64,000 nt of DNA from Myxococcales bacterium (GTDB lineage: Bacteria; Myxococcota_A; UBA9042), in contig JBBISH010000014.1 in NCBI GenBank assembly GCA_037441385.1, forward strand, positions 410-64,409, written 5' to 3'. A program made the position numbers and the translations under genes. Shown here one piece after another: positions 33,783-61,047 of the stretch (within the stretch, counting starts at the first letter, position 1; each line of letters begins with the position of its first letter). The notes below the pieces were generated by a model. The model made no database searches, was not told the origin of the DNA, and worked only from the letters and a program-made list of their open reading frames with translations.

Positions 33783-33810
33783 TGACATAACACAAGGTTG
33801 ACGCTTGTCG
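33783..33810 (+). promoter_or_regulatory. Instance 2 (degenerate) of the 23-bp motif: TGACAtaACACAAGGtTGaCgCT-TGTCG, in a very AT-rich patch (TAATATATTC) ending 24 nt before the CHAT-gene ATG
   Basis: The spacing CACAAGG-N8-TGTC is shared with the other instances. Confidence 0.4.
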
Positions 33811-33833
33811 CGCGCCGGCGCACGCTTGGCGAC

Positions 33834-38917: not shown

Positions 38918-40768
38918 CTACGGGGCTTCTTCCACCCACAGCGTGGCGTGTGCGGTCTGGCGGCCGTCCGAGGCGTACTGGCCCACGTCTTCCAGGATCA
39001 GGTGGTTCCACCACACCGTGAAGGTGTGCGCTCCGGCCGGGACGTTGGTGGCGATGCACGAGATGGTGTCCGCGCGCACCTCGTCGGTGTTGCCGTAGTA
39101 CTCCGAGCCGCAGCCCCAGGGCGTGGGGATGACCTTGTCGTCCATGCGGACTTCGATGCCGCCCCAACCCCAGCTGCTGTGGGTCTCTAGCGCGCCGGTC
39201 ATGACCTGAATCTTTAGCACCGAGGCGGCCTGCTGCTTGGTCAGGGTCGCCTTCAAGTTGGTGTCCAACTGAGCCCAACCGCCGCCGGCGTTGCCGGTGT
39301 GGGGGCCGGTCACGGTGGCCGTGGCATAGTTGAGCTTCTGCGGGATGGAAACGCCATTTACGGTGCCGTCGACGAGGAGGTCGCCCTTGACCTGCACCTT
39401 CTTGTTCGACAGGGTCTGGATGTTGATCGACCAGTTGAATTTGCCGTCGAACCCGCCCGAGCCGCCGCCGGCAAGCAGGTCCTTGACCGTCACCGACCAC
39501 GCACCGGCGATGTTCTTGCCCACCCAATCCTTGTTGATATCGCCCGAGACGATCGCCATGTCGCTGTTGAAGTTCGCCGTCAGCACCGTGCCGGTCTTGG
39601 AGCCGTCGTACAGCACGTAGGGCGACGGCATGCCGGGACCGTACAGTTCGATGCGCACCTTGGCGACGTTGCTGTTGTTTACCGTCATCGAGATCCAAAC
39701 CTTCTGCGCCAGGCCGATGTCCGGGAAGGACAGGGTGTCGGTCACGCCGGCGGTCAGGCCGTCTTTGATCGCGACATCGGTCGTGCCCGCCTTGCTATCG
39801 ACAAACTGGTTGAAGATCAGGCCATTACTGACCTCGTCGATGCCATCAGCCGGCATATCTTTCTCGCTGAGAATGCCGCACACCAGGCTGCCATCCGCCG
39901 CCAGCCCCTTGACGACCAGCCCGGTGCCGCAGCTTTTGCCCACCTGAGCCAGCACGGGCGCGTCCACCAAGTCGGCGTATTTCCCGGTCGATGCCACCTT
40001 GGCCAACTGCGGCTTGTCGGCCAGATCGTTGTAGCTGCCGGTACCGGCCACCGGCGCCAGCGACGCGGCCTTGACGTAGTCCGACAGGTCACTCTTGGAC
40101 GCCAACCCAACCAAATCCGCGGCTTTCGCATAGGCGGCCAGGTCGGCACTCTTGGCATAGGCGCCCAGGTCCGCCGCCTTGGCATACACACCCAAATCCG
40201 CGGACTTGGCATAGACGCTCAGGTCCGCCGATTTGGCATAGGGGCTCAGGTCTGCGGTCTTGGCATAGGCCGCCAGGTCGGCAGACTTGGCATAGGCCGC
40301 CAGATCCGAAGTCTTGGCAAAGGGTTGCAGCACGCCACCTTCGAGCATCGCCGCGGTGATGCAGCCCGAGCACTCCAGCCCTTCGGCCACCACGGCGCGC
40401 TGCGCGTACAACACCGACGCCAACGGCTGCCGCGGCAGCTCGGGATCCGAACCAATCTGCACGCCGATCCAGGCCTTGCTCAAGCTCAGGCTCGCGGGTA
40501 CGAGTGGAGTCTTCGTGCCCAAGTTCCAAAGGAACAAGCCGCCTTGCACGTCGACGCTGACGGGCCCTTCGCTCCAGACCGCCGAACCACCGGCCTCCGC
40601 CGCATAGATGGCAAAGGTCACGTTGTAGCTGCCGTCCGAGACGGTCCCCCCGGCCTGCGACGTCAACCGGCCCTGGGTGATGGTGGTGGGCGGCACAGCG
40701 GCCTGGGCGGTCGCCGCGCCACACAGGGCGAGCAGACTGAACAGCAAAGTCGATAGGCGCAGATTCAT
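38918..40768 (-). CDS. Paralog of the 13911-16127 modular tail-fibre-like secreted protein: same N-domain, 8 YAKxxDLxx repeats, P-domain-like module, different (non-FReD) beta-rich C-terminal domain
   Basis: The signal is MNLRLSTLLFSLLALCGAATAQA. The N-domain is about 60% identical to the paralog, including the shared LECSGCI motif. The C-terminal ~200 aa are unrelated to FReD. Confidence 0.7.
   Translation of the reverse strand: MNLRLSTLLFSLLALCGAATAQAAVPPTTITQGRLTSQAGGTVSDGSYNVTFAIYAAEAGGSAVWSEGPVSVDVQGGLFLWNLGTKTPLVPASLSLSKAWIGVQIGSDPELPRQPLASVLYAQRAVVAEGLECSGCITAAMLEGGVLQPFAKTSDLAAYAKSADLAAYAKTADLSPYAKSADLSVYAKSADLGVYAKAADLGAYAKSADLAAYAKAADLVGLASKSDLSDYVKAASLAPVAGTGSYNDLADKPQLAKVASTGKYADLVDAPVLAQVGKSCGTGLVVKGLAADGSLVCGILSEKDMPADGIDEVSNGLIFNQFVDSKAGTTDVAIKDGLTAGVTDTLSFPDIGLAQKVWISMTVNNSNVAKVRIELYGPGMPSPYVLYDGSKTGTVLTANFNSDMAIVSGDINKDWVGKNIAGAWSVTVKDLLAGGGSGGFDGKFNWSINIQTLSNKKVQVKGDLLVDGTVNGVSIPQKLNYATATVTGPHTGNAGGGWAQLDTNLKATLTKQQAASVLKIQVMTGALETHSSWGWGGIEVRMDDKVIPTPWGCGSEYYGNTDEVRADTISCIATNVPAGAHTFTVWWNHLILEDVGQYASDGRQTAHATLWVEEAP
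40033..40321 (-). repeat. 27-bp coding tandem repeats (8 YAKxADLxx units plus degenerate units)
   Basis: The encoded stretch runs FAKTSDLAA YAKSADLAA YAKTADLSP YAKSADLSV YAKSADLGV YAKAADLGA YAKSADLAA YAKAADLVG and onward. Confidence 0.7.
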
Positions 40769-40994
40769 GGTGGGCTCCCGGCGGGGACGAAAGGGCACGC
40801 ACATCCAAAGGACGATGCAGGCTGCGGAACGGTTGGACAGACCCGTCGCGGGCCGCCCCGCCGACCCCGCGCCGCACGCAAATAGGGTACGTCTGGCGCC
40901 AGAGGTGGTCAAACCCCATGAAACCACAACATTACGTTTACCTGACAAGTTTGCCACAGCTCTGTAGCTACGCGAGACGCCGCGAGGGCGATGA

Positions 40995-41040
40995 AGCGCA
41001 AAAAACGGCGACGCCGGCAGAGGTTTTGCCCCCTGCCGGC
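40995..41040 (-). terminator. Candidate Rho-independent terminator for the tail-tube gene (minus-strand hairpin GGCGCCGGCAG-N12-CTGCCGGCG, 7-nt spacer, TTTTTT)
   Basis: The inverted repeat spans 41011-41040 on the plus strand and is followed on the minus strand by the A6 run at 41000-41005. Confidence 0.45.
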
Positions 41041-41047
41041 GCCGACT

Positions 41048-41140
41048 CGTACTTTTTGCTGTGCGAGCTCTTTTTGGCTGTGCGAGCTCTTCTTGGCTGT
41101 GCGAGCTCTTCTTGGCTGTGCGAGCTCTTTTTGGCTGTGC
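41048..41140. repeat. 19-bp tandem repeat GGCTGTGCGAGCTCTTYTT x ~4.5 (each unit has a GAGCTC palindrome) in the 3' UTR of the tail-tube gene, ~280-370 bp upstream of the paralog gene
   Basis: Direct reading gives four near-identical units followed by a degenerate unit. Confidence 0.7.
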
Positions 41141-41231
41141 GTGCTTGTCAGCTTGTGGCTGTTGCCTCTTGAGCTACGGCGAGCCTTCGACCCGCGCGTC
41201 GTGCCCCGTCTGGATCACAGCCGCGTCAAGA

Positions 41232-41663
41232 TCAACCGCGCTCCAGCTTCTCAACGGCCAGCTCGAGCTCTTCGACGTTGACGTCGGTGCCCTTGCCGTC
41301 CAGGGTGAAGCCCTTCCACTTGGTCGGCCAGCCCTCGAAGAAGTTGTAGCGCATGATCTCCGAGCCGTCGTCGGCGCAGAGGATGACCGAGCCCGACTTG
41401 CGCTGCACCTTGCCCTCGACGACGGCCTTGCGCCATTCCCAGAGCTCAGTGTTGTTGATGTAGCCGCGCTTGAAGGTGATGTTGCTGTACTTGGTGCGGC
41501 CCGGGCGCTTACGCAGCACCATATCGTCGCCGTCCTGGTACTCGATGATCTCGGTCTCGCTGTCCAGGCCTTCCACGTTGCGGAAAGCACCCTGGGTGAC
41601 GCCTTCGATCTCGATCTTGAAGTTGAAGTTACCGATGTGGTCGAATGCACGACGGTTAGGCAT
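41232..41663 (-). CDS. Phage tail tube protein of the T4 gp19 / eCIS Afp1-Pvc1 type (PF06841-like), stand-alone
   Basis: The sequence FNFKIEIEGV...FRNVEGLDSETEIIEYQDGDD...KRPGRTKYSNITFKRGY...ELWEW matches the conserved phage-tail-region-protein signature. No sheath or baseplate genes lie nearby. Confidence 0.7.
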   Translation of the reverse strand: MPNRRAFDHIGNFNFKIEIEGVTQGAFRNVEGLDSETEIIEYQDGDDMVLRKRPGRTKYSNITFKRGYINNTELWEWRKAVVEGKVQRKSGSVILCADDGSEIMRYNFFEGWPTKWKGFTLDGKGTDVNVEELELAVEKLERG

Positions 41664-42061
41664 GTCACTTCTCCGGCCCCCTTCGAGGGCCTGGGCGGTT
41701 GCGCCAGCTCAGAACGGCTTCTGGTCCGGCATCTTGTGTTTCCACCCTAGTTCGCCGCGCGGCGCGTGCCAAACTCCACAAGACGCTTTGGAAGGTAGCC
41801 CCTCCGCCGGGCCCCCGCAAGTGTCAATTGCGGCAGCCCCGCGAAATCGGCCACAGGGTGGGACATGCAGACCCCGATGAGGTCAAATCCTCCGGGGGTA
41901 CGGGGGTCTACAGGGTCGGTTCGCGCGCGAGGCTGGCCCAATTCACGCCTGATCGGCCGCGATCGCGCCGACGAAGAATCGCGGCCTGGGCCGCATAATC
42001 CGTTGACCTGCTTACGCAAATAAGCGAAGCCGGTGAACGAAGCCGGTGAGCGAATCCGCCT

Positions 42062-43018
42062 TCAGAATCCTTCGGGCAGTCCGCCTGGCGCGGCCGGGTC
42101 GCTTGGTTCGGCGGTCGACGTGCCGGTCGCAGGCCGTTCAGCGGGCGCGGCAGGCCGCAATTCGGGCTGATCTTGCAGGGGATCGCGCCAGCGCGGCCGT
42201 TCGGTGGCATAGAACGCCGCGCCCTTGCTGCGCCCCAGCGACCGCACGTAGTGCACCAAAGCCCAACGATCCGCAACCAACGGAATGGACTGATCATACG
42301 ACGGCATGGGCGAGCCATCCAGGCCGGTGACGAAGGTGCGGTAGACGTCGAGCGGGCGCATGCCGCCCTTGTAGACGCCGTAGGTAAAGTCAAAGACGTG
42401 ACTGGGGGTGCCGTCGCTGTTTTTCGCGGTCGTTGCCGCCAGACCGTCGCCGCGCCCGTCAGCGCCGTGGCACTCGCCGCACTTGAGCTGGGTGTAGAGC
42501 TGGCGACCGCGCTCGATACTAGCTGGCGTTTCAGCGACTTCGGTAACATCAGCTGGCACGAGCAGGTCGTCGACCTGGCGCGGCTCGGCGGCAAAACGCG
42601 GCGACAGCGTCTCTAGGAACAGGACTAGCGAAAGGAGCTGCCGGTCGGTCAGCTGCTCTTGCCAGCCCGGCATCGCGCTGCCCGGCAGGCCCAGGGCCAG
42701 GCTGCGGAGCAAATCGGCGCGCAGCGGGAGGGCGCCGCTGGTGGTGGAGCGAAAGCGGTACTCGCCGCGGGTGAGGTCGCGCGGCCGCGGGAAAAGGTGC
42801 TCTGCCACTGGGGATTTGCCGTCTCCCCTGGGCCCGTGGCAGCCGCTGCACAGGGCGCTGAACAATTGCCGGCCCTCTGCCGGGGTGGCCGGCGGTTCGG
42901 CAGCGCTTTCTGCTGGCGCAGGGCTGGGTTGCACGCCCGCGCCGCCACAGGCCCCCAGCGCGATGGCGAGCAGGGCGGAGGCGGTGCAGGCCGCGCGAAG
43001 TTGGCTAAAGGAAGCCAT
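42062..43018 (-). CDS. Dihaem c-type cytochrome lipoprotein (cytochrome c4/Cyc1-like)
   Basis: The signal is MASFSQLRAACTASALLAIALGAC. It has two CXXCH motifs, CSGCHGPRG and CGECHGADG. Its start overlaps the upstream gene end by 14 nt. Confidence 0.7.
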   Translation of the reverse strand: MASFSQLRAACTASALLAIALGACGGAGVQPSPAPAESAAEPPATPAEGRQLFSALCSGCHGPRGDGKSPVAEHLFPRPRDLTRGEYRFRSTTSGALPLRADLLRSLALGLPGSAMPGWQEQLTDRQLLSLVLFLETLSPRFAAEPRQVDDLLVPADVTEVAETPASIERGRQLYTQLKCGECHGADGRGDGLAATTAKNSDGTPSHVFDFTYGVYKGGMRPLDVYRTFVTGLDGSPMPSYDQSIPLVADRWALVHYVRSLGRSKGAAFYATERPRWRDPLQDQPELRPAAPAERPATGTSTAEPSDPAAPGGLPEGF

Positions 43019-44126
43019 GGAGTTGCACCAGCAGTTCGTCGGCGTTGCCCGCCGGCCGTTGGGGGATGTCGCGGTTCTTCCGGTACTCCAAGCGAATTTC
43101 GGAGAACTGCAGCGGGAACCAGCCCAGACCGACCACAAAGCGGTCGCGCTCGTTGTTGGCGATCTGCCGCGAAGGGTCAAAGGCTTCGAACCGGCCACGC
43201 AAGTGCAGGCCGCGCCAGAGCTCGAAATCGCCTTCGGTAAAGAGCGAATACTGGTCGTAGATCTCGGGATTGCCGATGCCGCGAATCCAGTCGATCGAGC
43301 CGAGCAGCGTAAGCCGCGCCAGCCGCATCCCACCGTGAAGACCGGCGGTCACGGTTTGGAAGGGGAAGTCGCGGACCGATGTGTCATTCCACGCGGCCGA
43401 GGCGTAGAGGCGCCACCACGAGTCGAATACCCCAACCGTGGCAGTGAGTTGCTTGGCCAAGTTGCCGTCCGCGCCGCCCAAGCTGCCGTTGCTCAGCGAC
43501 AGCGCTGCCGACCAGTGCTTGCCGGTGGCGCCGACCTCGATGCCCAGGTCTTGGTTGGCGTAGTTGAAGCCGGTCTGCTGGCGCATGAACGCGGTGTCGT
43601 CCCAAATCCGCAGGCCGTACGGCAACATGAAGCGCCCGGCCTTGAGGTAGAGCCCGCCCGGCAGCGCGCCGTACAGCAAGAAGGCCTCGCGGGCCGAGGC
43701 GCCTTCGGGGGCGACGACCTCGTCGACGTACACCGAGAGCGCGTCGGGCACGACGTCGGCGCGGAGGTAGAGGTTGCCCTCGCTGATGTCGAAGGAATTC
43801 GAGGCTGGGGTGGAGTACTGCTTGCCCTGGATGGCCGTATGCGCGGGCAGGATGGTTCGGTGATCCAGGCGGAGATTGGCGCCAAAGTGAACCGTTGAGC
43901 CGAGTTGCGGGTCAGCGGCACCGACACTGCGCCAAGTGGGCAAGTGGGTCTGGGCCCAGGCGACGCCAAAGGCCGTGCGCATGCCGCCGCCGGTGCGGTT
44001 GACGTGGCAGTCGCTGCACGGCAGCCCTTCGCGCAAGGCAAAGCGCGGCTCGGCCTGCGCGCCAGTAGACCACAGGGTCACCGCGGCACATACGCACAGG
44101 GCGAGAGCGGCGAGGGCGCGAGCCAT
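43005..44126 (-). CDS. Cyc2-like fused monohaem cytochrome / predicted outer-membrane beta-barrel protein
   Basis: A signal peptide is followed by a single CXXCH (PCSDCH) about 12 residues into the mature protein. Some 320 aa follow with the alternating aromatic/polar pattern typical of a porin. It is TGATG-coupled to the upstream PSCyt gene. Confidence 0.5.
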   Translation of the reverse strand: MARALAALALCVCAAVTLWSTGAQAEPRFALREGLPCSDCHVNRTGGGMRTAFGVAWAQTHLPTWRSVGAADPQLGSTVHFGANLRLDHRTILPAHTAIQGKQYSTPASNSFDISEGNLYLRADVVPDALSVYVDEVVAPEGASAREAFLLYGALPGGLYLKAGRFMLPYGLRIWDDTAFMRQQTGFNYANQDLGIEVGATGKHWSAALSLSNGSLGGADGNLAKQLTATVGVFDSWWRLYASAAWNDTSVRDFPFQTVTAGLHGGMRLARLTLLGSIDWIRGIGNPEIYDQYSLFTEGDFELWRGLHLRGRFEAFDPSRQIANNERDRFVVGLGWFPLQFSEIRLEYRKNRDIPQRPAGNADELLVQLHGFL

Positions 44127-44755
44127 CAGTTTTCGCCTCCAAGATCCGTCGGTTGCAGCATGTCGCCTCCGCCATCCTGCGTGTCCGGGCCGGGTTCGCT
44201 TGGGCCGGGTTCGCTTGGGCCGGGTTCGCTGGGCTCGCCGCCCGCATCGGGCAGGGGCACCGTGAGCACCTCGGCGTCGGCGGGCTCGTCCTTCCAGTCC
44301 GTGGTGGCGCCAGCCGAAATCCAGTGCCGCAGGGATGTGATCTGCGCGCTACTCAAGAAGGGCGGCCCAGTCCTGGGCATCCGCGAACCCACGCGCCGCG
44401 GATCGCTGCCGATCACCTTGGCCATCAGGTAGCTGTCCTCGGGCTTGCCTGGGGCCACCCGCAGCATCGCCGGCACCTCCGACGACGCCACACCGACCAG
44501 CATCTTGTACGCCGAAGCCGTGTCCAGCGCCAACCCCTTGGGCGCCGCGCCGCCGTGATGGCACGGCTGGGCGCAGGTGGGCTCCAGAATCTGCGATTGG
44601 ATCTCGGGCCACGTCTTGGGCCCGGTCGCGCCAGGCTCGGGCGGCGCCGGCACCCCCACGCCGTTGCCCACGCAGCCGGCCATCGCCCAGCCGAGCAGCC
44701 CTTGCATCGCCCAGCGCGAGCGCGACAATACAAGGAGCACCGAGGCCGCCGACAT
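44126..44755 (-). CDS. PSCyt1-type (planctomycete cytochrome c domain) lipoprotein with one CXXCH and C-terminal PSEPG repeats
   Basis: The PSCyt1 pattern is ...ILEPTCAQPCHHGG...GLALD...PGKPEDSYLMAKV...MP...ITSLRHWISAGA. The signal is MSAASVLL...WAMAGC; an alternative start at M17 (44707) is possible. Confidence 0.6.
   Translation of the reverse strand: MSAASVLLVLSRSRWAMQGLLGWAMAGCVGNGVGVPAPPEPGATGPKTWPEIQSQILEPTCAQPCHHGGAAPKGLALDTASAYKMLVGVASSEVPAMLRVAPGKPEDSYLMAKVIGSDPRRVGSRMPRTGPPFLSSAQITSLRHWISAGATTDWKDEPADAEVLTVPLPDAGGEPSEPGPSEPGPSEPGPDTQDGGGDMLQPTDLGGEN
44187..44240 (-). repeat. 18-bp x3 tandem repeat coding (PSEPG)3
   Basis: The plus-strand unit is gggccgggttcgcttg. Confidence 0.6.
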
Positions 44756-44772
44756 GAAGCACCCTTGTGTCA
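44751..44772 (-). promoter_or_regulatory. Instance 3 of the 23-bp motif (minus strand): TGACACAAGGGTGCTTCATGTC, overlapping both divergent start codons
   Basis: This is the reverse complement of gacatgaagcacccttgtgtca. The CATG at 44753-44756 supplies an ATG on each strand. Confidence 0.5.
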
Positions 44773-44966
44773 TCTTACTGATCTTAATGGCGATTGTGGC
44801 AACCAGCTGCGTTACCGTGCAGCCGTGGCAGCGGGGCACGCTGAGCGAGCCGGCGATGGAATTGAAGCCGCGGCTGGGTAGCGAATTCCACAACCACGTG
44901 CGGCAGGTGCGCGAAGCGGCCATCGGCGGCGAGGGCGGCGCGGGCGGCGGCTGCGGCTGCAACTGA
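44754..44966 (+). CDS. DUF4266-family small lipoprotein (71 aa, C-terminal GGCGCN)
   Basis: The sequence is MKHPCVILLILMAIVATSC...VQPWQRGTLSEPAMELKP...GGEGGAGGGCGCN. The 5' codons are AT-rich. It is convergent on the DUF3570 gene. Confidence 0.6.
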   Translation: MKHPCVILLILMAIVATSCVTVQPWQRGTLSEPAMELKPRLGSEFHNHVRQVREAAIGGEGGAGGGCGCN

Positions 44967-44998
44967 TCGACGCGCGGCGGCATCCGGCTCCTGAGGGT

Positions 44999-46108
44999 CT
45001 AAAGATCAACGGACAAGGCAGCTTGGAGGATGCCGGTCCAGGTGTCGGCCATGGGCACAAAGGCGCCGTTGACCAGCGTGCGGAAGTCGTCGTAGCGTTC
45101 CCAGCCCGCCATGGCCTGCAGCACCGCCTCCCAGTTTTGCCAGCGAGTGCGCAAGGTTAGCTGAGTGCTGTCGGCAATCTGACCAACCAGGCGGCGGTCG
45201 CGCGTCATGTACTCGCGCTCTACGGAATACATCGCCCGCTCGAAGCTGGCCCGCGACTGCCAGTAGAAGCGATTGCTCAGCTCGACTTCGACCGCATAGT
45301 GGAACTTGAAGGTGGCGCCCAGCTCGGCCGTGTTGGCGCGGACGCCCCAGGTGTCGACGTAGCCGCGGTAGAAAGCGCGCAAGAACCAACGGTTGCTCAA
45401 GGCCTGGCGGCCCTCGATCGTGACGCCGTGGCGGGTGCGCTGATCGGGATGCTGCTCGGCGACCCACTGCGCGTGGTCTTTGGTCCACAGGTCGACCGTC
45501 TTGGGCACGAGGGGCACCATCCGATAGGGACTGGACTGAAAGCCGTTGATTTGCTGCAGAGTATACGCCAGCGACAGGACCGCAGTGCGGCTGATCAGCT
45601 GGGTGAGGGTGGCGTCGAGCCGGTGACTGGTGCGGTCGTGCCACAGCGCTTCGGGCTCGCGGACGCTGCCCAGCCGGTCCAGGCCCACACCATAGGTCAA
45701 TGATGTAGCCAGGTTGCGCGACAGCCACTCGCGAGTGGCGCCCAGGCTGACGGTGTGACTGCGGGTGTCGTTTTCGGTGCTGTAGGTATAGCCCGCGTGG
45801 CCTGCGAGCCCTTGCTCGTCGTAGACGGCCTGCAACCCCGCTTCTTTGCGGACGTCGTGAAAGCGCGCGCTGGCCCCCGAGATCATGTCCACCGAAGCGG
45901 CCGAAATGAAATCCGTTTTCAGATCGGCTTGGAGCGAGGCGCCGCTCTTGACGCGCTGCCGGGCTTGGACCCACGGCGAGATCACCTGCAGGCCATCGTT
46001 GTTGCGATACACGGCCGTGCCGGTCGCTGCGTGCGCCCCCAGTTCGTCGGCCCGGACCGGCGCCGCCAGGCCAAACAGCGCGCACAGCACGGCCCAATGC
46101 CACGCCAC
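44999..46108 (-). CDS. DUF3570-like predicted outer-membrane beta-barrel protein (GTG start)
   Basis: The signal is (M)AWHWAVLCALFGLAAPVRA. The sequence has alternating Y/W/F beta-strand periodicity. The other minus frame is Arg/Pro junk. Confidence 0.55.
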   Translation of the reverse strand: MAWHWAVLCALFGLAAPVRADELGAHAATGTAVYRNNDGLQVISPWVQARQRVKSGASLQADLKTDFISAASVDMISGASARFHDVRKEAGLQAVYDEQGLAGHAGYTYSTENDTRSHTVSLGATREWLSRNLATSLTYGVGLDRLGSVREPEALWHDRTSHRLDATLTQLISRTAVLSLAYTLQQINGFQSSPYRMVPLVPKTVDLWTKDHAQWVAEQHPDQRTRHGVTIEGRQALSNRWFLRAFYRGYVDTWGVRANTAELGATFKFHYAVEVELSNRFYWQSRASFERAMYSVEREYMTRDRRLVGQIADSTQLTLRTRWQNWEAVLQAMAGWERYDDFRTLVNGAFVPMADTWTGILQAALSVDL

Positions 46109-46140
46109 GCTGGCCCAATGGAGCCCCAGGCGCGGCGCGA

Positions 46141-46670
46141 TCACGGCAGCACCCAGTCGACCCAGTCGGCGAGGAGCTTGTAGTCGGGGTCGTCGCGGCT
46201 GGCGAAGATCTCGAAGCCGCTGCCGTGACGGATGCCACCTTGGTCCAGGGGCAGGCACTTGAGCAAGAGTTTGCAGTTATTCAACGAGGTTACGCCGCGC
46301 AAGCGGTTGCGGATGGCGTCGTAGTTCCACGTGAGCTCGGCCTCGGTCAGGCGCGTCTCGTCCAACGGCGTCTCCGCAAACTCGGGAGGCGCGCGAAGGA
46401 AATCCACGGCGTACAGCTTGAGGCTGCGATGCGGGTCGCCGTGGCAGGCCGACGAAGCACAGCGCCGCCCCAAGACCGGTTGCACGAAGGTGACAAACTG
46501 GCCGTAGTTGGGTTTGGGCGGTACGTAGCGCGGATTGTCTATGGACTCGCACCCGGCGACGGCGAGCAAAACAACACTGATTACAAGAACTTTGGCCAAA
46601 GTGCGCCGCAGGAGCCGCCATGGTCTGGTCCGCCGCGGGGGGCTTGAAAGGGGTTGCAGGTGGCCATTCA
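46141..46670 (-). CDS. PSCyt1-like lipoprotein with degenerate haem motif (CX4CH)
   Basis: The signal is MNGHL...VLLAVAGC. The pattern FVQPVLGRRCASSACHGDP...LLLKCL...DDPDYKLLADW parallels the 44126-44755 protein. Confidence 0.5.
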
Positions 46671-46838
46671 TCTCGGCACGACGCGGCTCTCTTGCGGTTG
46701 CGCGCCCCCCATGCCGTCTGGACACCGACCAGGGCCGCGGGAGGTGGCGATTTGGCGTTTGCGCGACCCCTGCGGGCGGTGGTATCAAGCAAGTGGAGAT
46801 CGGAAGAGCACGCACACCGCCTGATTCGATGCTATGCA

Positions 46839-49139
46839 ATGCAGCCGAGCCGCGCAATCAACCGTGTCTGTTCCGTCGCATGGCTGCTGTTGGCGGCCGT
46901 GTGCGGTAGCGGGTGCGCCGAGCCCGAGGCGACGATCGCCGCCCCCAAGGTAGAGAGCTGCAGCGCGGCGGCCTGCCACGCCGATGTGGAGCAAATCCAC
47001 TACGGTGGCCAGATGTTGCGCTGCGTCGATTGCCACGGCGGCAACCCCGAGGCGCCGACCAAGGCGGGGGCGCACGTGACGGTGGACTACTCGTTCAACC
47101 CGACCACGCCGGGCAAGCACTTCTTGGACGACCCGCCGCTGGTGGACCTTGCCGCGGTCCCGACCGCAGTGATGCAGTTCTTGAATCCGGCCGATTACCG
47201 CGTAATTCGCAATACTTGCGGAAGCTCGACCTTGGCCGGCGGCAACTGTCACAGCATCATCACCAGCAACAGCTTGCTGCTGAATCGGGCGACGTTGGCG
47301 GGCCAGCTTGCCGGGGGTGGCTTCATCGCTGGCGTCCAGGGCAAGGCGGCCCACTACGGGGTGGTGCCAACCCGCGACACGCTGACACCCACCAAACTGC
47401 CGCCGCTCACTGCGGCTGACTTCCCGGCGCTTCCCGCGGACGTGCCGGCGAGCGTGACGCCGACGACGGCCCAGGCGTTCTATCCTGTTTACGAGCAGTT
47501 GTGCACCGAGTGCCACCTCAGCCGCGAGGGCGCCAAGATGCCGGGGCGCTACTACTCAGCGGGGTGCAACGGCTGTCACATGACCACCGCGGACGATGGC
47601 CGCACCGTGAGCAGCGATCCCACGCAAAATCGCGAGGAGATCGGTCACCCCATGCGGCACCGGTTCACGAATCTGGTGCCGGACCGGCAATGCGCGCACT
47701 GCCATATTTCGCACCTGGGTCGGGCGCTGTTGGCCCAAGGTGTCCGCGAGCGGAGCGAACCAGACGGCGACAAGCTGGCCGGCGGCCCCAACCGTGGCGC
47801 GGCGGACCCGCCCAACGCGGTGCCGTGGGCCAAAGAAAACTACATAAAATACAAGGGGATGTATTGGCAGTACGGCAAACCGTACCCGTATTTCATCGCG
47901 GACGAGAACGGCACCAACGACACGGACGAGACGCCGCCCGACATCCACACCGCCAAGGGCCTGGCCTGCATCGACTGCCACAACATCGTGGAGGAGCACG
48001 GCACGGGCAAGATGGCCTACCGGATGGACCAAGAGCTGGACGTGCGCTGCCAGAGCTGCCACGGGCGGCCGGGCGAAAAGGCGAAGCTGATGTCGGATTC
48101 GGCTGTCACGTTTGACAAGGCGGGGACCGCGGCGGGCGGCTTTGGCGGAAACCCGCTGATGATTCATACGCTTGCCGATGGAACTGTGTACGAAACGGGC
48201 AAGATCGACGGCAAAGACCACCCCGTGACGCAGATCAACGCGCGCATCGATCCGGCTGGCAAGATCTACAACCCACGGACACGAATGGGTTGTCAGCTGC
48301 ACGCCGGCTCGGCGGAGGCGCGGGCAGCGGTGCGCAAGGCGGTGAACGACCTTTCGGCCAAGGACCCCGCGGCGGTGGCAAAGGAGTTCCCAGGGCTACC
48401 GGAGGGATTCAAGTTCAAGGAGTTGGGCGGTGAAGAGGACGGCCGGGTTGAGTGCTTTACCTGCCACAACAGCTGGACCTTGAACTGCTACGGCTGCCAC
48501 ATGGTCCGCGACGACCGCAAGAGCTACGTCAGCCGCATCGACGGCAAGAAGAAGCTAGGCGCGGTCGAGAGCTTTGGCCTCTCCGTCCTGCCCGACGCGC
48601 TGGCGATGGGCTTCAACGCGCGGGGGCGCATCTCGCCGCTGGTGGGGACGTCGATCTTCTTTACGCACATCGACAAGGGCGGCAACAAGGTCATCGACGC
48701 CCAGGCGCTGACGACCGGCGAGGGGCTGACCGGCGAGGGCAACGTCCACAACCCCGTGCACCACCACACGATTCAAAAGCTGCCGCGCGACTGCACCGGC
48801 TGTCACCCGGCCGCGACGGGCGACACGAGCCCGCAAAGTGCCAACGCCAAGGCGGTGTTGCGCGCCGTCGGCCTGGGCACAGGCGAGGCAACCTTTGTCG
48901 ACGGCAACGGCAAGACCCACTGGCTGGACCGGCTGCTTTGGGCCGACTACGACGGCGACGGCAAATGGGACGACCCCAAGACGCTGGGGCTGCCGCAGGC
49001 GCTGGCCGCGGTCGAGCGGGCGGTGGGCACGACGCACCTGCAGCTGCCCTCGTTCGTCGGCCTGCCCGACCCGGGGCCGCTGGACCTGGCGACGGTGCGG
49101 CGGGTCATCGACAACCGCGTGGTCAATCAGCGACCATAG
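46839..49139 (+). CDS. Multihaem c-type cytochrome lipoprotein (9 canonical CXXCH plus 2 non-canonical)
   Basis: The signal is MQPSRAINRVCSVAWLLLAAVCGSGC. The canonical motifs are CVDCH, CTECH, CNGCH, CAHCH, CIDCH, CQSCH, CFTCH, CYGCH and CTGCH. The two non-canonical sites are CSAAACH and C-X9-CH. Confidence 0.8.
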   Translation: MQPSRAINRVCSVAWLLLAAVCGSGCAEPEATIAAPKVESCSAAACHADVEQIHYGGQMLRCVDCHGGNPEAPTKAGAHVTVDYSFNPTTPGKHFLDDPPLVDLAAVPTAVMQFLNPADYRVIRNTCGSSTLAGGNCHSIITSNSLLLNRATLAGQLAGGGFIAGVQGKAAHYGVVPTRDTLTPTKLPPLTAADFPALPADVPASVTPTTAQAFYPVYEQLCTECHLSREGAKMPGRYYSAGCNGCHMTTADDGRTVSSDPTQNREEIGHPMRHRFTNLVPDRQCAHCHISHLGRALLAQGVRERSEPDGDKLAGGPNRGAADPPNAVPWAKENYIKYKGMYWQYGKPYPYFIADENGTNDTDETPPDIHTAKGLACIDCHNIVEEHGTGKMAYRMDQELDVRCQSCHGRPGEKAKLMSDSAVTFDKAGTAAGGFGGNPLMIHTLADGTVYETGKIDGKDHPVTQINARIDPAGKIYNPRTRMGCQLHAGSAEARAAVRKAVNDLSAKDPAAVAKEFPGLPEGFKFKELGGEEDGRVECFTCHNSWTLNCYGCHMVRDDRKSYVSRIDGKKKLGAVESFGLSVLPDALAMGFNARGRISPLVGTSIFFTHIDKGGNKVIDAQALTTGEGLTGEGNVHNPVHHHTIQKLPRDCTGCHPAATGDTSPQSANAKAVLRAVGLGTGEATFVDGNGKTHWLDRLLWADYDGDGKWDDPKTLGLPQALAAVERAVGTTHLQLPSFVGLPDPGPLDLATVRRVIDNRVVNQRP

Positions 49140-49164
49140 GACGATATGCTCATGTATTTCATAC

Positions 49165-49190
49165 ACATGACACAAGGGTGCATTGTTGCG
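49165..49190 (+). promoter_or_regulatory. Instance 4 of the 23-bp motif: CATGACACAAGGGTGCATTGtTGcG, whose ATG is the predicted lipoprotein start
   Basis: Direct reading. The right arm is weak. The patch (49141-49185) is AT-rich. Confidence 0.4.
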
Positions 49191-50006
49191 GTTGGCCTTG
49201 CGGCAACGTTGCTCGCGGGGTGTGAGTCCGAAACGGCGACCCCGAGCGCGACGCCAGCGGTCGAGACCATGGCGGAGTTCACTGGGGCGCCCACGGCGGT
49301 GGTCGGCGGAGCGTGGGCGTGTGCGGGCAAGGCGCAAGGGACCGTCACCGGCGGGGCCGTGGAACTGAACGGCTACGTGCGGTTGCTGAGCGACCCGGAG
49401 GCCAAACAGCCCGTGCCGGCGGCCAAGATCGAGGCATTCAGCGCAGCTGGCGTGTCGCTGTCGGAGCCGAGCTATGCGGACCCGAGCAAGGCCGGCCGCG
49501 TGGCGCTGTCGGTGCCCGTCAAGTCCACGGGCTTTGATGGGTACGCCGTCATTTCGCAAGCCGGATTCTTGGATTTTCGCCTGCAGTCAAGCCGCAAGGT
49601 GGTGTCGACCGATCTGGCCGGCTGGGCGTGGCTGGCGACGCAGGCGGAAGTGGACAGCCGGGCCCAGGCCATAGGGATTCCGCTTGAGGCGGGCAAAGGG
49701 ATTCTGGTCGGTTCGGTCCACGACTGCGACGGTTTTGGCGCGGCCAACGCGGTAGTCGAGGTGGGCGGCTCGCTGAGCACGACGGTGCTGTACGCCGAGG
49801 GGTTTGACTTGGTCGCCAAGCGTGTCTTTACGGCGGATTCCGGGCGCTTTGCGGTGGCGAACCTGCCGGCGGGTCCGGTGACCATCAAGGCGTTCGGCCG
49901 CGCCAAGGCGGGTGGGAAGCTGCAACTGCTCTCCAAAATCGAAACGACCATCGTCGCCGGCAAGATGACGGCCGTGGACCTGGCCCCGCGCGCGGCCGGG
50001 CAGTAG
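49167..50006 (+). CDS. Hypothetical lipoprotein with carboxypeptidase-regulatory-like beta-sandwich C-terminal domain
   Basis: The signal is MTQGCIVAVGLAATLLAGC; an alternative start at 49146 is possible. The C-terminal sequence SGRFAVANLPAGPVTIKAF is CarbopepD_reg-like. Confidence 0.5.
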   Translation: MTQGCIVAVGLAATLLAGCESETATPSATPAVETMAEFTGAPTAVVGGAWACAGKAQGTVTGGAVELNGYVRLLSDPEAKQPVPAAKIEAFSAAGVSLSEPSYADPSKAGRVALSVPVKSTGFDGYAVISQAGFLDFRLQSSRKVVSTDLAGWAWLATQAEVDSRAQAIGIPLEAGKGILVGSVHDCDGFGAANAVVEVGGSLSTTVLYAEGFDLVAKRVFTADSGRFAVANLPAGPVTIKAFGRAKAGGKLQLLSKIETTIVAGKMTAVDLAPRAAGQ

Positions 50007-50016
50007 TCAACGCACT

Positions 50017-51273
50017 GTGCCTGTGATTCTGCTGGGTATGCTGATGCTCGCGGCCGTGGCGGCGGCGGCACTGCGTCCGGCGGCCTGGTCGGGGACGCTG
50101 ACGCTGGGCGCGACGATGCTGGCGCTCGCGCCGCTGTGGCTGGGGGCGGCGGCGTGGCTGTGGCGGCGGCCGGGGCGCATCGCGCTGCGGTGGGTTCTCC
50201 TATTTTCCTTGCTCTTTCGCCTGGGTGCGGCGCTGGAGCCGCCGGCGCTGTCGTCCGACGCCTACCGCTACCTGTGGGACGGCCGGGTCCAGCGAAGCGG
50301 GCTGAGTCCCTACGCTTTTGCCCCAGGCGACCCGCACCTGCAGCATTTGCGCGACGACCTGGTATTTACGCGCGTAAATCGGCCCGCGGCGCGGACCATC
50401 TACCCGCCGGGAGCCCAGCTGCTCTTTGTGGCGCTGCCGTACGACATGGCGGCGGTGCGTTTCTTGTTCATCGCGCTGGACTTGCTGACGGTCTGGCTGG
50501 TCGCGCGGATGCTTTCTCGCATTGGCCAGGACCCGGCGCGGGCGCTGCTGTATGGCTGGAGTCCGCTCGCCATCTGCGAGGTGGGCAACGCGAGCCACCT
50601 GGACGCGGCGATGCTGCCCCTGCTCGTGGCCGGTGCGTGGGCGCTGATTGCCGGACGGACGCGGCTCGCGGGCTGGCTCTGGGGCGGCGCGGCGAGCCTC
50701 AAGCTGTATCCGGTGCTTGTCGCGTTTTCGCCAATTCGTAAGCATCGAAGCGCGGTTGGCACAAGGGTGCTACTTGTCGGGGCGGGGCTGTACGGGGTCT
50801 ATGGGCTGGTCAGCGGCACGCGGGTGCTCGGGTTCTTGCCGGACTACGTGCGGGCCGCAGAGGACCACAACATCGGGCTGCGGGCGGTGTTCGAAGGTCT
50901 GGCCGCGCCCCTGGGGCCGGCGGCGGCGCGCATCGCGGGGTTTGGGGCGTGCGGGGTGGCGATGGCGGCGGGGGTGTGGCTCGTGCTGCGGCAAAGCGAA
51001 GACCCGCTGCGACGACTGCGCGACCTGATAGCCGTCTACTTGCTGACGGTGCCTACCGCGCTCCACCCGTGGTACGCCCTGTGGCTCTTGCCGTTTCTGT
51101 GCGCGGGCCCAACGGCGCCGGGGCTGTGGCTGCTGGCGACGCTGCCGCTGTCGTACCTGAAATACTCGGCGCCAGGTGGCGTTCTGCCGCCGTGGGTGCC
51201 CGTGGTCGAGTTCCTGCCCGCTACGGTCCTGCAAGTGCGGCTGCTCTTGCGCACGCCGCAGGTGGCAGCATGA
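50017..51273 (+). CDS. Polytopic membrane glycosyltransferase-like protein (DUF2029/GT87-like)
   Basis: It has about 11 TM segments and the conserved SSDAYRYLWDG motif. A copy of the 23-bp motif sits internally at 50757-50779. Confidence 0.55.
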   Translation: MPVILLGMLMLAAVAAAALRPAAWSGTLTLGATMLALAPLWLGAAAWLWRRPGRIALRWVLLFSLLFRLGAALEPPALSSDAYRYLWDGRVQRSGLSPYAFAPGDPHLQHLRDDLVFTRVNRPAARTIYPPGAQLLFVALPYDMAAVRFLFIALDLLTVWLVARMLSRIGQDPARALLYGWSPLAICEVGNASHLDAAMLPLLVAGAWALIAGRTRLAGWLWGGAASLKLYPVLVAFSPIRKHRSAVGTRVLLVGAGLYGVYGLVSGTRVLGFLPDYVRAAEDHNIGLRAVFEGLAAPLGPAAARIAGFGACGVAMAAGVWLVLRQSEDPLRRLRDLIAVYLLTVPTALHPWYALWLLPFLCAGPTAPGLWLLATLPLSYLKYSAPGGVLPPWVPVVEFLPATVLQVRLLLRTPQVAA

Positions 51274-52706
51274 GCCCGGCCCGGTTGGCCCTGGTGCCGT
51301 ACCTGCTGCTGCTGGCGTGGATGCTTTTGTACAGCGCCCACGCGGTCGTGCTCGTGATCTTGCACCGGCGCACGCCGCCGCCGGCCAAACCGCCGCAGTG
51401 GCCGGGCGAACTGCCGCTCGTTGCCGTGCAACTTCCTGTCTACAACGAAGAACTTGTCGTAGAGCGGCTGATCGCAGCGGTGGGCCGGCTGGACTGGCCG
51501 CGCGACCGGTTGCTTGTGCAAGTTCTGGATGACTCTACGGATCGCACGACACAGCTCGCCGAGAGAGCCCTCGCGCACCTGGCGGAAGCCGGCCTCCAGA
51601 CCCAGTTGCTGCGGCGCGGCGAGCGGTCGGGCTTCAAGGCCGGCGCGCTGGCCCACGGCATGGCGCACACTCCTGCGGAATTCTTCGCCATCTTTGACGC
51701 CGATTTCGTACCCCCGCCCGAATTCCTGCGCCGCGCGCTGCCGCACCTGGTCCCGGCCGACGTGGCCGCGGTGCAGGGCCGCTGGACGCACCTGAACCGC
51801 GACGCCTCGGCGCTGACCCGCGCTCAAGCCGTGGCGATTGACGGACATTTCGCGATGGAGCAAGAGGCGCGCTTCCGGGCTGGCTGGCTGCTCAACTTCA
51901 ACGGCAGCGCCGGAGTGTGGCGGCGCGCGGCGATCGCGGCGGCCGGAGGTTGGCGGGGCGACACGCTGACCGAGGACCTGGACCTGTCCTACCGCGCCCA
52001 GTTGGCCGGCTGGCGCCTGGTGTACGACCGCGACCTGGTTTGTCCGGCGGAACTCCCAAGTACTTTGGCGGACTTCAAGGCTCAGCAGCGCCGCTGGGCC
52101 ACGGGCTCCATCCAGGTGGCGCGGTCGCTCTTGCCGGCCATCTGGCAGAGTCCGCGCTCGCTTGCGACCAAGCTAGCCGCGACCCTGCACCTGACCCACT
52201 ACGCCGTGCACCCACTGGTGGCGCTGACGGCTCTGATGTCGGTACCTTGCGTGCTGTTGCCGGGTCTGCAGCATCCGCAGGGCGCGCTGTGGCAGGTGAT
52301 GGCGCCCTTCGCCCTGGCGATGGTGGGGCCAACGCTCTTGTATACTTACGCGCGCATGGAGCTTGGACTGCCGCTGCGGCCGCTGCTGGCCGACCTGGGC
52401 CCGCTGACGCTTTTGGGGATCGGGGTCGCGATCTCGAACGGCAAGGCGGTGCTGCAAGGGCTGCGGCCGGTCGTGCGCGAGTTCGAGCGGACCCGAAAGC
52501 TGGGCCAGGATGCGGGGTTGCCGGGCGTGTATGCCCAGCCCCGCGACCGGCTGCAGCCGTGGGAGTGGGCCCTGGCGGCCTATTGCCTGACTGCCGCCGC
52601 CGGGCTGGTTTGGAGCGGCGTCTACGCGGTCGCACCCTTTTTAGCCTTGGACGCCGCGGGGTTCGCGTATGTGGCCTGGGGCGGTCGGCCGGAGCGCAGG
52701 CCATGA
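51270..52706 (+). CDS. Family 2 glycosyltransferase (cellulose-synthase-like, processive type)
   Basis: It is ATGA-coupled to the upstream gene. The motifs are DDSTD, FDADF and the Q(Q/R)xRW motif QQRRWATG. TM segments lie at the N- and C-termini. Confidence 0.75.
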   Translation: MSPARLALVPYLLLLAWMLLYSAHAVVLVILHRRTPPPAKPPQWPGELPLVAVQLPVYNEELVVERLIAAVGRLDWPRDRLLVQVLDDSTDRTTQLAERALAHLAEAGLQTQLLRRGERSGFKAGALAHGMAHTPAEFFAIFDADFVPPPEFLRRALPHLVPADVAAVQGRWTHLNRDASALTRAQAVAIDGHFAMEQEARFRAGWLLNFNGSAGVWRRAAIAAAGGWRGDTLTEDLDLSYRAQLAGWRLVYDRDLVCPAELPSTLADFKAQQRRWATGSIQVARSLLPAIWQSPRSLATKLAATLHLTHYAVHPLVALTALMSVPCVLLPGLQHPQGALWQVMAPFALAMVGPTLLYTYARMELGLPLRPLLADLGPLTLLGIGVAISNGKAVLQGLRPVVREFERTRKLGQDAGLPGVYAQPRDRLQPWEWALAAYCLTAAAGLVWSGVYAVAPFLALDAAGFAYVAWGGRPERRP

Positions 52707-53413
52707 GGGTCGCGGTCATCATCCCGGCCTGGAACGAGGCAGCGAGCATCGCGGCCGTGGTCCGAGCGGTCCCGGTCGAACTGGGCGCCGTGGTGATCGT
52801 AGTGGATGGGGGAAGTCGCGACAGCACCGTCGAAATCGCGCGCGCGGTGGGGGCGGAGGTCGTGGTGGAGCGGCGCCCGGGCTACGGTCGCGCCTGTTTG
52901 ACCGGAGTGGACAAGGCCGAAGCACTGGGTGCGGAGGTCGTGGCCTTCTGCGATGGCTCCGACGCCGCCAACCCAGCGGACTTGTTGCCGATCGTCCAGC
53001 CTGTTTTGGCCGGTACCGCGGACTTCGTGGTCGGGTCGCGGACGCTGGGGCTGGCGGAACCGGGCGCCCTGCGGCCCCTGCAGCGCGCGGGGAATTGGGC
53101 GGCCACCTGGCTGATTGTCCGGCGTTTTGGCGTGCGGTATACGGACCTGGGCTCGATGCGGGCGCTGCGGCTGGCGGACCTGCGCCGGCTGGACCTGCAG
53201 GAAATGGCCCACGGCTGGCCGACAGAGATGCAGGTCCTTGCTGCCCAACATCATTTGCGAATCCTTGAAGTTCCCATGCACTATCGGCGACGCCGCGCCG
53301 GGGCGTCGAAGGTCTCTGGGCATCCCCTGGGCGCACTCCGGGCCGGTTTGGCGATCTTGCGCGTGGCGAGCGGTATGGGTCGTCAGCAAGGTCGCCGGGG
53401 GCCGACTGGATAG
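52703..53413 (+). CDS. Family 2 glycosyltransferase (polyprenyl-phosphate sugar synthase/DPM1-like)
   Basis: It is ATGA-coupled. The motifs are VIIPAWNEAASI and DGGSRDST...CDGSD. Confidence 0.75.
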   Translation: MRVAVIIPAWNEAASIAAVVRAVPVELGAVVIVVDGGSRDSTVEIARAVGAEVVVERRPGYGRACLTGVDKAEALGAEVVAFCDGSDAANPADLLPIVQPVLAGTADFVVGSRTLGLAEPGALRPLQRAGNWAATWLIVRRFGVRYTDLGSMRALRLADLRRLDLQEMAHGWPTEMQVLAAQHHLRILEVPMHYRRRRAGASKVSGHPLGALRAGLAILRVASGMGRQQGRRGPTG

Positions 53414-53494
53414 GTTGGCGGGTTGTCCATCGCGCGGCCAAAGTCGATCATGCTCGGGTTGGCAGGGGCAAAGCGTAGGTGGCAAGGGGTGGCG

Positions 53495-55138: not shown

Positions 55139-55881
55139 TGAGGAACCTCCTGTTTCTGCACGGCATACTCATCATGATGGCGAGCGCGTGCGTGGGGAAC
55201 GGCGAGCTGGAAGCCCAGCTGACCGGCCAGGTGGTGGGCGACGACGACCGACCGCTGGGGCCCGGACTGGTGATGGTCGAGCGGGGCAAGGTCCACGCTG
55301 GCGCTTACGAGGGCGGCGCGCTGATTGCGCCAAACGGCAAGTTCTCGGTGCCGCTTCCCGGCGGCGGTACGTGGGGCGTGCACCTCTTCAACGACAACTA
55401 CTCGTACCTGCCCGTTGAGGTGACGATCGACCCGCATCAGCAGGTCGCGCTGACGAACATGATGGTGAACTGGGGCGTCTGGATGGACCTGACCGGGCAG
55501 CCGAGTTGGCCCGACCAGCCCGATGACGCGCGCCTGATTCGCCTGCCGACCGACGACAACAAGGCCGACAACCCCGTCATCCAGAACATCCAGATGAAGT
55601 ACTTGCCCGGCGACCTGTTCCAGATCTCGGCCGATGTCAGCGACCCGACCCACGACCTGTCGCGGATGATCCTCGCCTTCGACGAGGCGACCGGCGCCGG
55701 CTACGCGATGAACCCGCCGGGTCCGCCCGACGCCAAGGGCTACTACCCGGAAGGCACCTACACTCTCAAGGTCTTCCTCAGCGACAAGCACGTCCGCGGC
55801 AAGTCGATGTGGCACTTCGTCGTCTCGGACGCGATGTGCAACAACACCCCGATTCAGCACTTGCCCATGCCGGCCAACTAG
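55138..55881 (+). CDS. Hypothetical lipoprotein
   Basis: It is TGATG-coupled. The signal is MRNLLFLHGILIMMASAC. Confidence 0.5.
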   Translation: MRNLLFLHGILIMMASACVGNGELEAQLTGQVVGDDDRPLGPGLVMVERGKVHAGAYEGGALIAPNGKFSVPLPGGGTWGVHLFNDNYSYLPVEVTIDPHQQVALTNMMVNWGVWMDLTGQPSWPDQPDDARLIRLPTDDNKADNPVIQNIQMKYLPGDLFQISADVSDPTHDLSRMILAFDEATGAGYAMNPPGPPDAKGYYPEGTYTLKVFLSDKHVRGKSMWHFVVSDAMCNNTPIQHLPMPAN

Positions 55882-60699: not shown

Positions 60700-61047
60700 A
60701 GCGGAGACTGTTGCAAAGGTATGTTCGCAGAATTCTGATGCCAATACATTCAATCGGTTGCACGGCGAAAGCACCCGAATTCGACCCTTATGCAACAACC
60801 TCAAAGCGTTGGGAGGGGCAGACGCCGAAGGCGGCGGGGTGAGGGCCAAGTGCCAAGGATCGCACAGGTTTCCACCGCATTTACGGCACTAGTAGCCATC
60901 CGGTAAGGCAGGCAGCTAGGCAGGTAGGGCCAAGGCGGCGGTCAGACCGCGACGATTTCGCCCCGACGAACGGCTGCCGGCGCTCGCTTGGCGCCCACCA
61001 GAAATCAGGCTAAGGTCCAGCCGTTCCGTCCGTCCACCGGAGGCGCC

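Follow-up and report, generated by a model that had tools for sequence, protein, structure and literature searches.

The gene cluster described here lies in a 64,000-nucleotide (nt) stretch of DNA, referred to below as the window, from a Myxococcales bacterium (contig JBBISH010000014.1 of assembly GCA_037441385.1), and several described systems resemble parts of it. In iron oxidisers, the cyc2 gene is followed by the gene of a dihaem cytochrome (the cyc2-cyc1 order), and OmcB is a multihaem lipoprotein of ~750 a.a. that is encoded near barrel proteins. Cyc2 itself has a PXL motif four residues downstream of its CXXCH haem motif and, five residues upstream of it, the motif AXPXFAR[Q/K][T/Y], which has been called unique to Cyc2 (Keffer et al.). 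ExtM (GSU2935), a 12-haem cytochrome, is found in all Geobacter species, clustered with Rieske and cytochrome b genes, and a role in electron transport has been proposed for its cluster (PMC5877670). The DUF3570 and DUF4266 families have until now been tied to ApbE, thioredoxin-like proteins and DsbD by one bioinformatic and biochemical study (PMC8238504): a DUF3570 protein of Chlorobium is flavinylated by ApbE at two [S/T]GA[S/T] sites (Méheust et al. 2021, PMC8238504), and DUF4266 is a small protein, secreted and bearing a putative redox CXC motif, clustered with ApbE, thioredoxin-like proteins and often DsbD. A lake survey reported Myxococcota with many unclassified multihaem clusters together with Cyc2, which were not dissected (10.1101/2022.03.26.485925).

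Our analysis centres on six genes (C to H) between positions 44126 and 50006 of the window, and on their neighbours A, B and I to M. We read this region as the core of a conserved neighbourhood of envelope redox proteins in uncultured GC-rich Myxococcota, forming an electron-transfer module with haem (A, B, C, F and G), probable flavin mononucleotide (FMN; E) and thiol (D) centres; we give this reading a probability of roughly 0.55. All six genes are present where the first-pass annotation of this DNA had placed them. They are laid out in two divergent arms: the left arm, on the reverse strand, runs F-E-C-B-A, with D antiparallel to it, and the right arm, on the forward strand, runs from G and H through I to M (the window has a GC content of ~67%). 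Seven of the proteins, including C, D, F, G and H, have a lipobox, and in none of them is there a Lys at position +2. The F and E genes share GTGA and the C and B genes share TGATG, which suggests translational coupling; the overlap is 14 nt between B and A, and 4 nt in each of the pairs I/J and J/K. The region had been described as a composite outer-membrane electron-transfer module. Its linkage holds in related genomes, and a redox role is plausible, as the haem motifs are conserved, DUF3570 has been flavinylated experimentally and DUF4266 has a CXC motif. Gene content, conservation of the motifs and linkage are shown by the sequences; haem and FMN attachment, outer-membrane location, partners, direction and substrate are deduced from them.

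Relatives of the cluster were collected by a scan with one genome per species, which gave 44 loci (numbered with an L below), and three further loci were added through exact-protein look-ups; the neighbouring genes were mapped by tblastn and by hidden Markov models of the families. The relatives are groundwater and lake metagenome-assembled genomes (MAGs) labelled Myxococcales, Myxococcota, Kofleriaceae or Deltaproteobacteria. Five loci with clear orthologues of the cluster (L008, L009, L015, L017 and L018) come from records titled 'uncultured Enterobacteriaceae', 'Enterobacterales' or 'Rickettsiales', labels that are probably wrong. The idea that the genes form one linked module, which would have suffered had they been scattered in relatives, is supported by this comparison: F-E lies directly beside G in 19 of the 26 loci with sequence upstream of the G orthologue, and within 10 kb of it in 22 of the 26. 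H follows G in 17 loci, and C-B-A is present in 10. Genes have changed order and orientation in five loci (L019, L020, L026, L047 and L048), where A, B, C, D, E, F, G, H and M are nevertheless still found close together. It is very improbable that unrelated secreted-protein genes have merely come to lie side by side by chance, as their linkage is kept across 26 loci at 45-92% identity despite these rearrangements, and the trio of F, D and E recurs in unrelated metagenomes. L048 also has a second set of such genes on its contig (L048:16720-20858), consisting of an H-like gene on the reverse strand, a G-like gene and, directly after the latter at a distance of 39 nt, a B-like porin-cytochrome gene.

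The G gene (46839-49139, forward strand) encodes a multihaem lipoprotein cytochrome of 766 a.a. with 11 haem motifs: nine CXXCH, one CSAAACH (CX4CH) and one CGSSTLAGGNCH (CX9CH), exactly as the first-pass annotation had counted them. Only ~0.03 CXXCH motifs would be expected by chance from the Cys and His content of G itself. In an alignment of 29 orthologues (45-84% identity), each of the 11 motifs, like Cys26 of the lipobox, is either invariant or conserved to at least 90%, as are at least 11 further His; G also has an invariant HHHT motif and a CxLH motif. We found ~84 full-length orthologues of G, none of them named and all from MAGs labelled Myxococcota or Deltaproteobacteria. Upstream of the Met chosen for G, a peptide with 'RCY' (46620-46838) is conserved in orthologues ('RCYEKR...'), so that the true start of translation probably lies before 46839; the start chosen by gene callers was 46620.

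G had been likened to OmcB. As in the OmbB-OmaB-OmcB conduit, G is a multihaem lipoprotein encoded near barrel-type proteins, but the predicted barrels here are small and have a cofactor site of their own (haem in B, FMN motifs in E). The likeness is otherwise unsupported: Pfam and NCBIfam profile scans showed no homology of G to OmcB, which was itself not compared, and they revealed neither OmaB-type periplasmic octahaem cytochrome genes nor OmbB-type porin genes near G. The best and only substantial named match of G is ExtM (NF040943, an NCBIfam equivalog), with 127 bits and an E-value of 6.7e-37, below the cut-off of 800 bits. Shewanella homologues bridge the two proteins (25% identity to G; 308 bits, end to end, to ExtM), and G is a distant, divergent member of an ExtM-like multihaem superfamily. 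Unlike the 12-haem ExtM, G is a lipoprotein and has 11 motifs, CX4CH and CX9CH among them, and its context is without the Rieske/cytochrome b, ExtI, ExtKL or rhodanese genes of the Geobacter cluster (extHIJKLMNOPQS). None of the genes that neighbour G here were found with its distant homologues (22-30% identity, those of Shewanella included), and no F-like or C-like domain was found inside G.

Enzymes such as MccA have special conserved haem sites, and the strictly conserved CX4CH and CX9CH motifs of G resemble such sites. These motifs, the invariant HHHT, the CxLH motif, and the origin of ExtM in a selenite/tellurite-reduction operon would all suit a catalytic multihaem oxidoreductase acting on a nitrogen, sulfur or selenium/tellurium oxyanion, with the barrels serving as substrate channels, as has been proposed for the porin ExtI of the Geobacter ext cluster. 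We consider a catalytic G unlikely, however: its family profile matched no solved multihaem enzyme among PDB sequences beyond a weak similarity to the NrfB/NrfA haem pair (E-value 1e-3), the conserved His are enough for bis-His ligation of all haems, and ExtM itself has no demonstrated catalytic role.

The pairing of DUF4266 with DUF3570 proposed by the first-pass annotation is borne out by both genes. D (44754-44966, forward strand) encodes a lipoprotein of 70 a.a. that matches DUF4266 (PF14086) with 66.6 bits (cut-off 27) over profile positions 1-50 of 50; its lipobox is ATSC, and its C-terminal end, GGGCGCN (44943-44963), contains the CXC motif. E (44999-46144, reverse strand) encodes a protein with a signal peptide that matches DUF3570 (PF12094) with 88.4 bits (cut-off 25), and its orthologues are annotated as DUF3570. 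The most conserved feature in an alignment of 28 DUF3570 sequences is a double motif, D..S.AS / D..[ST].A[ST], which in E reads DFISAAS-V-DMISGAS (45869-45913, reverse strand). Both DFISAAS (site 1) and DMISGAS (site 2) retain the acceptor Ser, the Ala before it and the Asp further upstream, residues that are conserved across the family, and site 2 has a canonical [S/T]GA[S/T] (SGAS); E probably carries covalent FMN. Another SGAS, at residue 67 of E, was discarded as a flavinylation site, as its position is not conserved. Distant DUF3570 homologues give weak Porin_4 matches of 26-27 bits, and the last residue of canonical members is aromatic, from which we infer that E is a porin-like barrel. 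E is not a homologue of the other putative barrel protein, B (hhalign probability 3%).

D is convergent with E and fills the gap between E and C, a strand assignment absent from the first-pass annotation; automated gene calling on a 14.5-kb Logan contig that carries the same DNA missed D and lengthened C instead. The convergent arrangement is found in 13 related loci, while the two genes are co-directional in L021 and arranged in another way in L019. A local inversion of D was considered and rejected, as the 30-nt inverted repeat flanking it reaches no more than 70% complementarity, as do many pairs that arise by chance in such GC-rich DNA, and D has the same orientation in 13 independent assemblies. 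The start codons of C (reverse strand) and D (forward strand) overlap head to head in CATG (44753-44756), an overlap kept in L002, L004, L010, L014 and L015, and an ACAAT element lies ~25-35 nt upstream of the ATG of D, inside the part of C that encodes its signal peptide (the element is also present in L008 and L012, both without C). The overlap and the element would imply embedded promoters and, possibly, antisense interplay with a read-through F-E-C-B-A transcript.

The cluster shares with the DsbD/ApbE/thioredoxin-like/DUF4266/DUF3570 clusters (PMC8238504) the adjacency of the two Pfam families, the C-terminal CXC of DUF4266 and, in DUF3570, a pair of acceptor motifs at matching positions. 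It differs from them in its partners, which are c-type cytochromes (F, G and others), and in having D on the opposite strand, whereas in L049 and L050, two distant loci with DUF3570, the genes are co-directional and overlapping and have the canonical order Redoxin-DUF4266-DUF3570. These two loci (in L050 the Redoxin gene is accompanied by an F-like and dihaem pair), the link to iron assimilation via VIT1 proposed for the canonical clusters, and the idea of a 'flavinylation/cytochrome functional redundancy' (PMC8238504) speak for a periplasmic housekeeping or iron-assimilation redox system, in which F, D and E would provide a target in the envelope, such as oxidised proteins or Fe(III) that is to be taken up, with reducing power and cytochromes would replace DsbD/thioredoxin. 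We find such a system rather doubtful, as an 11-haem lipoprotein, a Cyc2-like haem-porin and a dihaem c4-type cytochrome exceed the usual needs of a maintenance pathway, and scans of the open reading frames (ORFs) of the window and of L046-L048 revealed no iron transporter in the neighbourhood.

F (46141-46671, reverse strand) encodes a lipoprotein of 176 a.a. that belongs to a family without a name; profile searches gave no Pfam, NCBIfam or PDB match. Its haem motif is CASSACH (46441-46461), the CX4CH that the first-pass annotation had recognised, and a distal His, H149, lies in GGIRH. Six residues (P65, C71, C76, H77, G78 and H149) are invariant across 48 members of the family, and the haem site is probably bis-His ligated. 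A search for F homologues by shared words found 11 proteins only, and the larger family came from an exhaustive profile search, which found 848 clusters at E<=1e-3 (304 at E<=1e-10), so that the family comprises at least 848. Most members are lipoproteins of ~150 a.a., and some are repeats within proteins of 900-1265 a.a., together with cytochrome c and HZS_alpha domains.

Scanning metagenomes with an alignment of four sequences from a distant F subfamily gave nine loci. The order F-like, DUF4266, DUF3570 (the last where the contig continues) is found in all six loci that have enough downstream DNA. Upstream of this trio, where sequenced, is a relative of the large HZS_alpha-type proteins, of 935 a.a. 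in L060 and 1154 a.a. in L058 (where it is cut by the contig end); the large protein of L060 has two F-like domains at its start and, at its end, a PSCyt1-like CXXCH domain that is weakly like C. Recurring in unrelated metagenome loci beside other haem proteins, F/DUF4266/DUF3570 is a module in its own right that is combined with different haem proteins in different lineages. The loci themselves (L052, L054 and L057-L060; e.g. L060:3215-7912) represent an unannotated conserved cluster of an HZS_alpha/PD40 beta-propeller haem protein followed by the F-like, DUF4266 and DUF3570 genes. A lactonase-type beta-propeller cytochrome gene follows DUF3570 in L058 and L060, the two loci checked, and in L050 an F-like gene is also found after DUF3570.

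A full-text literature search found no cytochrome context and no F-type partner described for DUF3570 or DUF4266; the cluster places these two families in a second context, one based on cytochromes, and joins to them the F family, a third partner that no domain database names. We propose tentatively, at well short of even odds, that DUF3570 proteins are 'flavo-porins', flavin counterparts of the Cyc2 haem-porin, in which a barrel has covalent FMN in its N-terminal segment. Such a flavo-porin, together with an F-type CX4CH haem lipoprotein and a DUF4266 CXC lipoprotein, could constitute a widespread undescribed three-cofactor outer-membrane conduit that is plugged into differing haem proteins (the ExtM-like G here, HZS_alpha-type beta-propeller cytochromes elsewhere).

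The B gene (43005-44126, reverse strand) encodes a protein of 373 a.a. with a predicted signal peptide ending in ...AQA and a single CSDCH at residue 37, followed by a long region that may form a barrel. We found no Pfam or NCBIfam match for B, and no match of its family profile among PDB sequences. B agrees with the Cyc2 layout in its signal peptide, in having one CXXCH only, near the N-terminus, and in reaching the minimum length of 365 a.a., although it is shorter than most Cyc2 proteins, and AEPRFALRE (44028-44054) matches the AxPxFA core of the Cyc2 motif. The A, P, F, A and shifted R of this motif are invariant in 10 orthologues of B. 'Cyc2-like' is therefore a fair label for B. As in the cyc2-cyc1 pair of iron oxidisers, B is followed by the gene of a dihaem cytochrome, A (42062-43018, reverse strand; the last gene of the left arm), a c4/cbb3-type lipoprotein with the motifs CSGCH and CGECH that matches Cytochrom_C (70.3 bits) and Cytochrome_CBB3 (58.8 bits) of Pfam. 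The CXXCH motifs of both families are invariant in nine orthologues each. A terminator-like hairpin (41980-41995, reverse strand) lies ~70 nt downstream of A, which fits the end of a left-arm transcript; such sites are no commoner here than by chance.

C (44126-44755, reverse strand) encodes a monohaem cytochrome c-like lipoprotein. The first-pass annotation had taken C and F for two PSCyt1-type lipoproteins, which our searches contradict: C matches PSCyt1 (PF07635) with 15.1 bits (gathering threshold 22), nine orthologues give 14.7 bits at most or no match, and F does not resemble the domain in any way. Nor is there homology between C and F themselves (hhalign probability 2.4%). C does have a layout like that of PSCyt1 (a hydrophobic helix, the haem motif, G..PKGL, PG.P..S, MP and W-I..GA), and there is a weak match between C and the PSCyt1-like haem domain at the C-terminal end of HZS_alpha-type proteins. 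Its family profile matched nothing among PDB sequences. The haem motif of C is CAQPCH (CX3CH; 44558-44575) and not the canonical CXXCH that had been reported. Either CXXCH or CX3CH is kept throughout the orthologue alignment, and the more distant orthologues (L007 and L019) have CXXCH, so that CXXCH was the ancestral motif, with one residue gained inside it in this clade. A Met-Pro is invariant in the family, which suggests that C is a His/Met, class-I-like monohaem cytochrome lipoprotein.

The variable C-terminal tail of C contains a tandem repeat (44187-44234), reported by Tandem Repeats Finder with a period of 15 bp, 3.3 copies and 97% matches, which encodes (SEPGP)3. An expanding repeat had been noticed here, and the expansion is real, as L004, the closest relative, has one copy; the unit is 15 bp, however, not the 18 bp given before.

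H (49146-50006, forward strand) encodes a lipoprotein of 286 a.a. with a conserved Cys pair and a VHDCDGFG motif. Its label as a CarbopepD_reg protein does not stand, as the C-terminal match to CarboxypepD_reg (PF13620) reaches 23.2 bits (E-value 8.9e-5) against a threshold of 32.3, and matches in its homologues are weak; H probably has a beta-sandwich domain. No PDB sequence was matched by the H family profile. Downstream, with gaps of at most 10 bp or overlaps from G onwards, follow the genes I to M (50017-55881, forward strand), and G through M are apparently in one operon, a tight packing on which the first-pass annotation was silent. They encode a GT87/GT-C glycosyltransferase (I), a processive GT2 enzyme similar to CelA and PgaC (J), a small GT2 enzyme resembling the polyprenyl-phosphate-hexose synthases AglJ and PpgS (K), a DUF2064 protein (TIGR04282-like) fused to radical SAM/SPASM (L), and a lipoprotein (M). 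The models that best fit the radical SAM domain of L are those of the 'metalloenzyme maturase', NirJ and PqqE types.

This right arm is found downstream of G in most loci, and the glycosyltransferase genes follow G even at 49% identity (L047, L022 and L026). The tight spacing of G to M with its 4-nt overlaps, and the assignments as a GT-C enzyme, a polyprenyl-phosphate-sugar synthase, a processive GT2 enzyme and a radical-SAM maturase, might mean that the cluster mainly serves the biogenesis of a cell-surface glycoconjugate or matrix, the secreted proteins being its substrates or parts of a glycosylated surface layer and their linkage reflecting a shared localisation. But the right arm is missing in five loci, four of which keep D-E-F-G (L008, L012, L018 and L048) and one E-F-G only (L011, where the contig ends inside E), so the redox core can exist without it. 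A structural role would also leave the strict conservation of the haem motifs unexplained, and we think a glycoconjugate function of this kind improbable.

Under the preferred reading, that of an electron-transfer module, G, sited either at the outer membrane or in the periplasm, would serve as a multihaem wire or capacitor, exchanging electrons with two barrel units, F/E/D (haem, FMN and thiol) and C/B (haem), and A would link the system to the respiratory chain. Within the first unit, F would be a CX4CH haem lipoprotein, E a porin-like protein with FMN in its N-terminal segment, and D a lipoprotein with a CXC thiol pair. The Cyc2-like and dihaem pair inclines us towards electron uptake from Fe(II), with the reduction of extracellular acceptors equally possible.

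Several observations weigh against this reading. In B, the PXL motif of Cyc2 is absent, CSDCH being followed instead by VNRTGGGMR (an invariant VNxTGGGxR), and the AxPxFA motif is offset, lying three residues from CXXCH (five in Cyc2) with its Arg shifted. In E, the Gly of the flavinylation motif is replaced by Ala at site 1, unlike in the clusters of PMC8238504, and in many orthologues it is gone from both sites. A scan that covered ~40 ORFs of the window, and a distance of 10 kb in L046-L048, found none of the partners in those clusters (ApbE, thioredoxin-like or DsbD proteins), and neither a quinol dehydrogenase nor a terminal oxidase. The AlphaFold2 models of G and F are of low confidence (predicted local distance difference test scores of 64 and 66, respectively), and with both models Foldseek found nothing in the PDB at E<=0.001. 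The apparent co-transcription of G with glycosyltransferase genes hints at another or additional role.

If the conduit is real, it would extend the porin-cytochrome and Cyc2 schemes to a mixed haem/flavin/thiol design and would be a candidate route of iron or humic redox cycling for uncultured groundwater and lake Myxococcota. It would also offer testable markers in the profile of the F family, in the G family and in the variant of the Cyc2 motif found in B. How specific haem lyases are could well be examined on the conserved CX3CH, CX4CH and CX9CH sites.

As for regulatory signals, a scan of the region for sigma-70 promoters found nothing, a terminator scan found four sites where chance alone would give six, between 41000 and 56500 the gathering score was reached by no Rfam family, and by eye there is no obvious Fur box in the F/G intergenic region. 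To the left of the cluster (38918-41663, reverse strand), a T4 gp19-like tail-tube protein (132 bits) is encoded beside a fibre-like protein of ~615-680 a.a., which has tandem 9-a.a. YAK[ST]ADL repeats and a weak match to the N-domain of the Bdellovibrio mosaic-adhesive-trimer. Tail-tube and fibre-like genes adjoin the cluster in L004 too, as does a fibre-like gene in L014, and fibre-like genes are also found in L006 and L009. The whole region is flanked by two very large TPR-CHAT proteins (33798-38825 and 60928-63999), the second of which runs past the end of the window.

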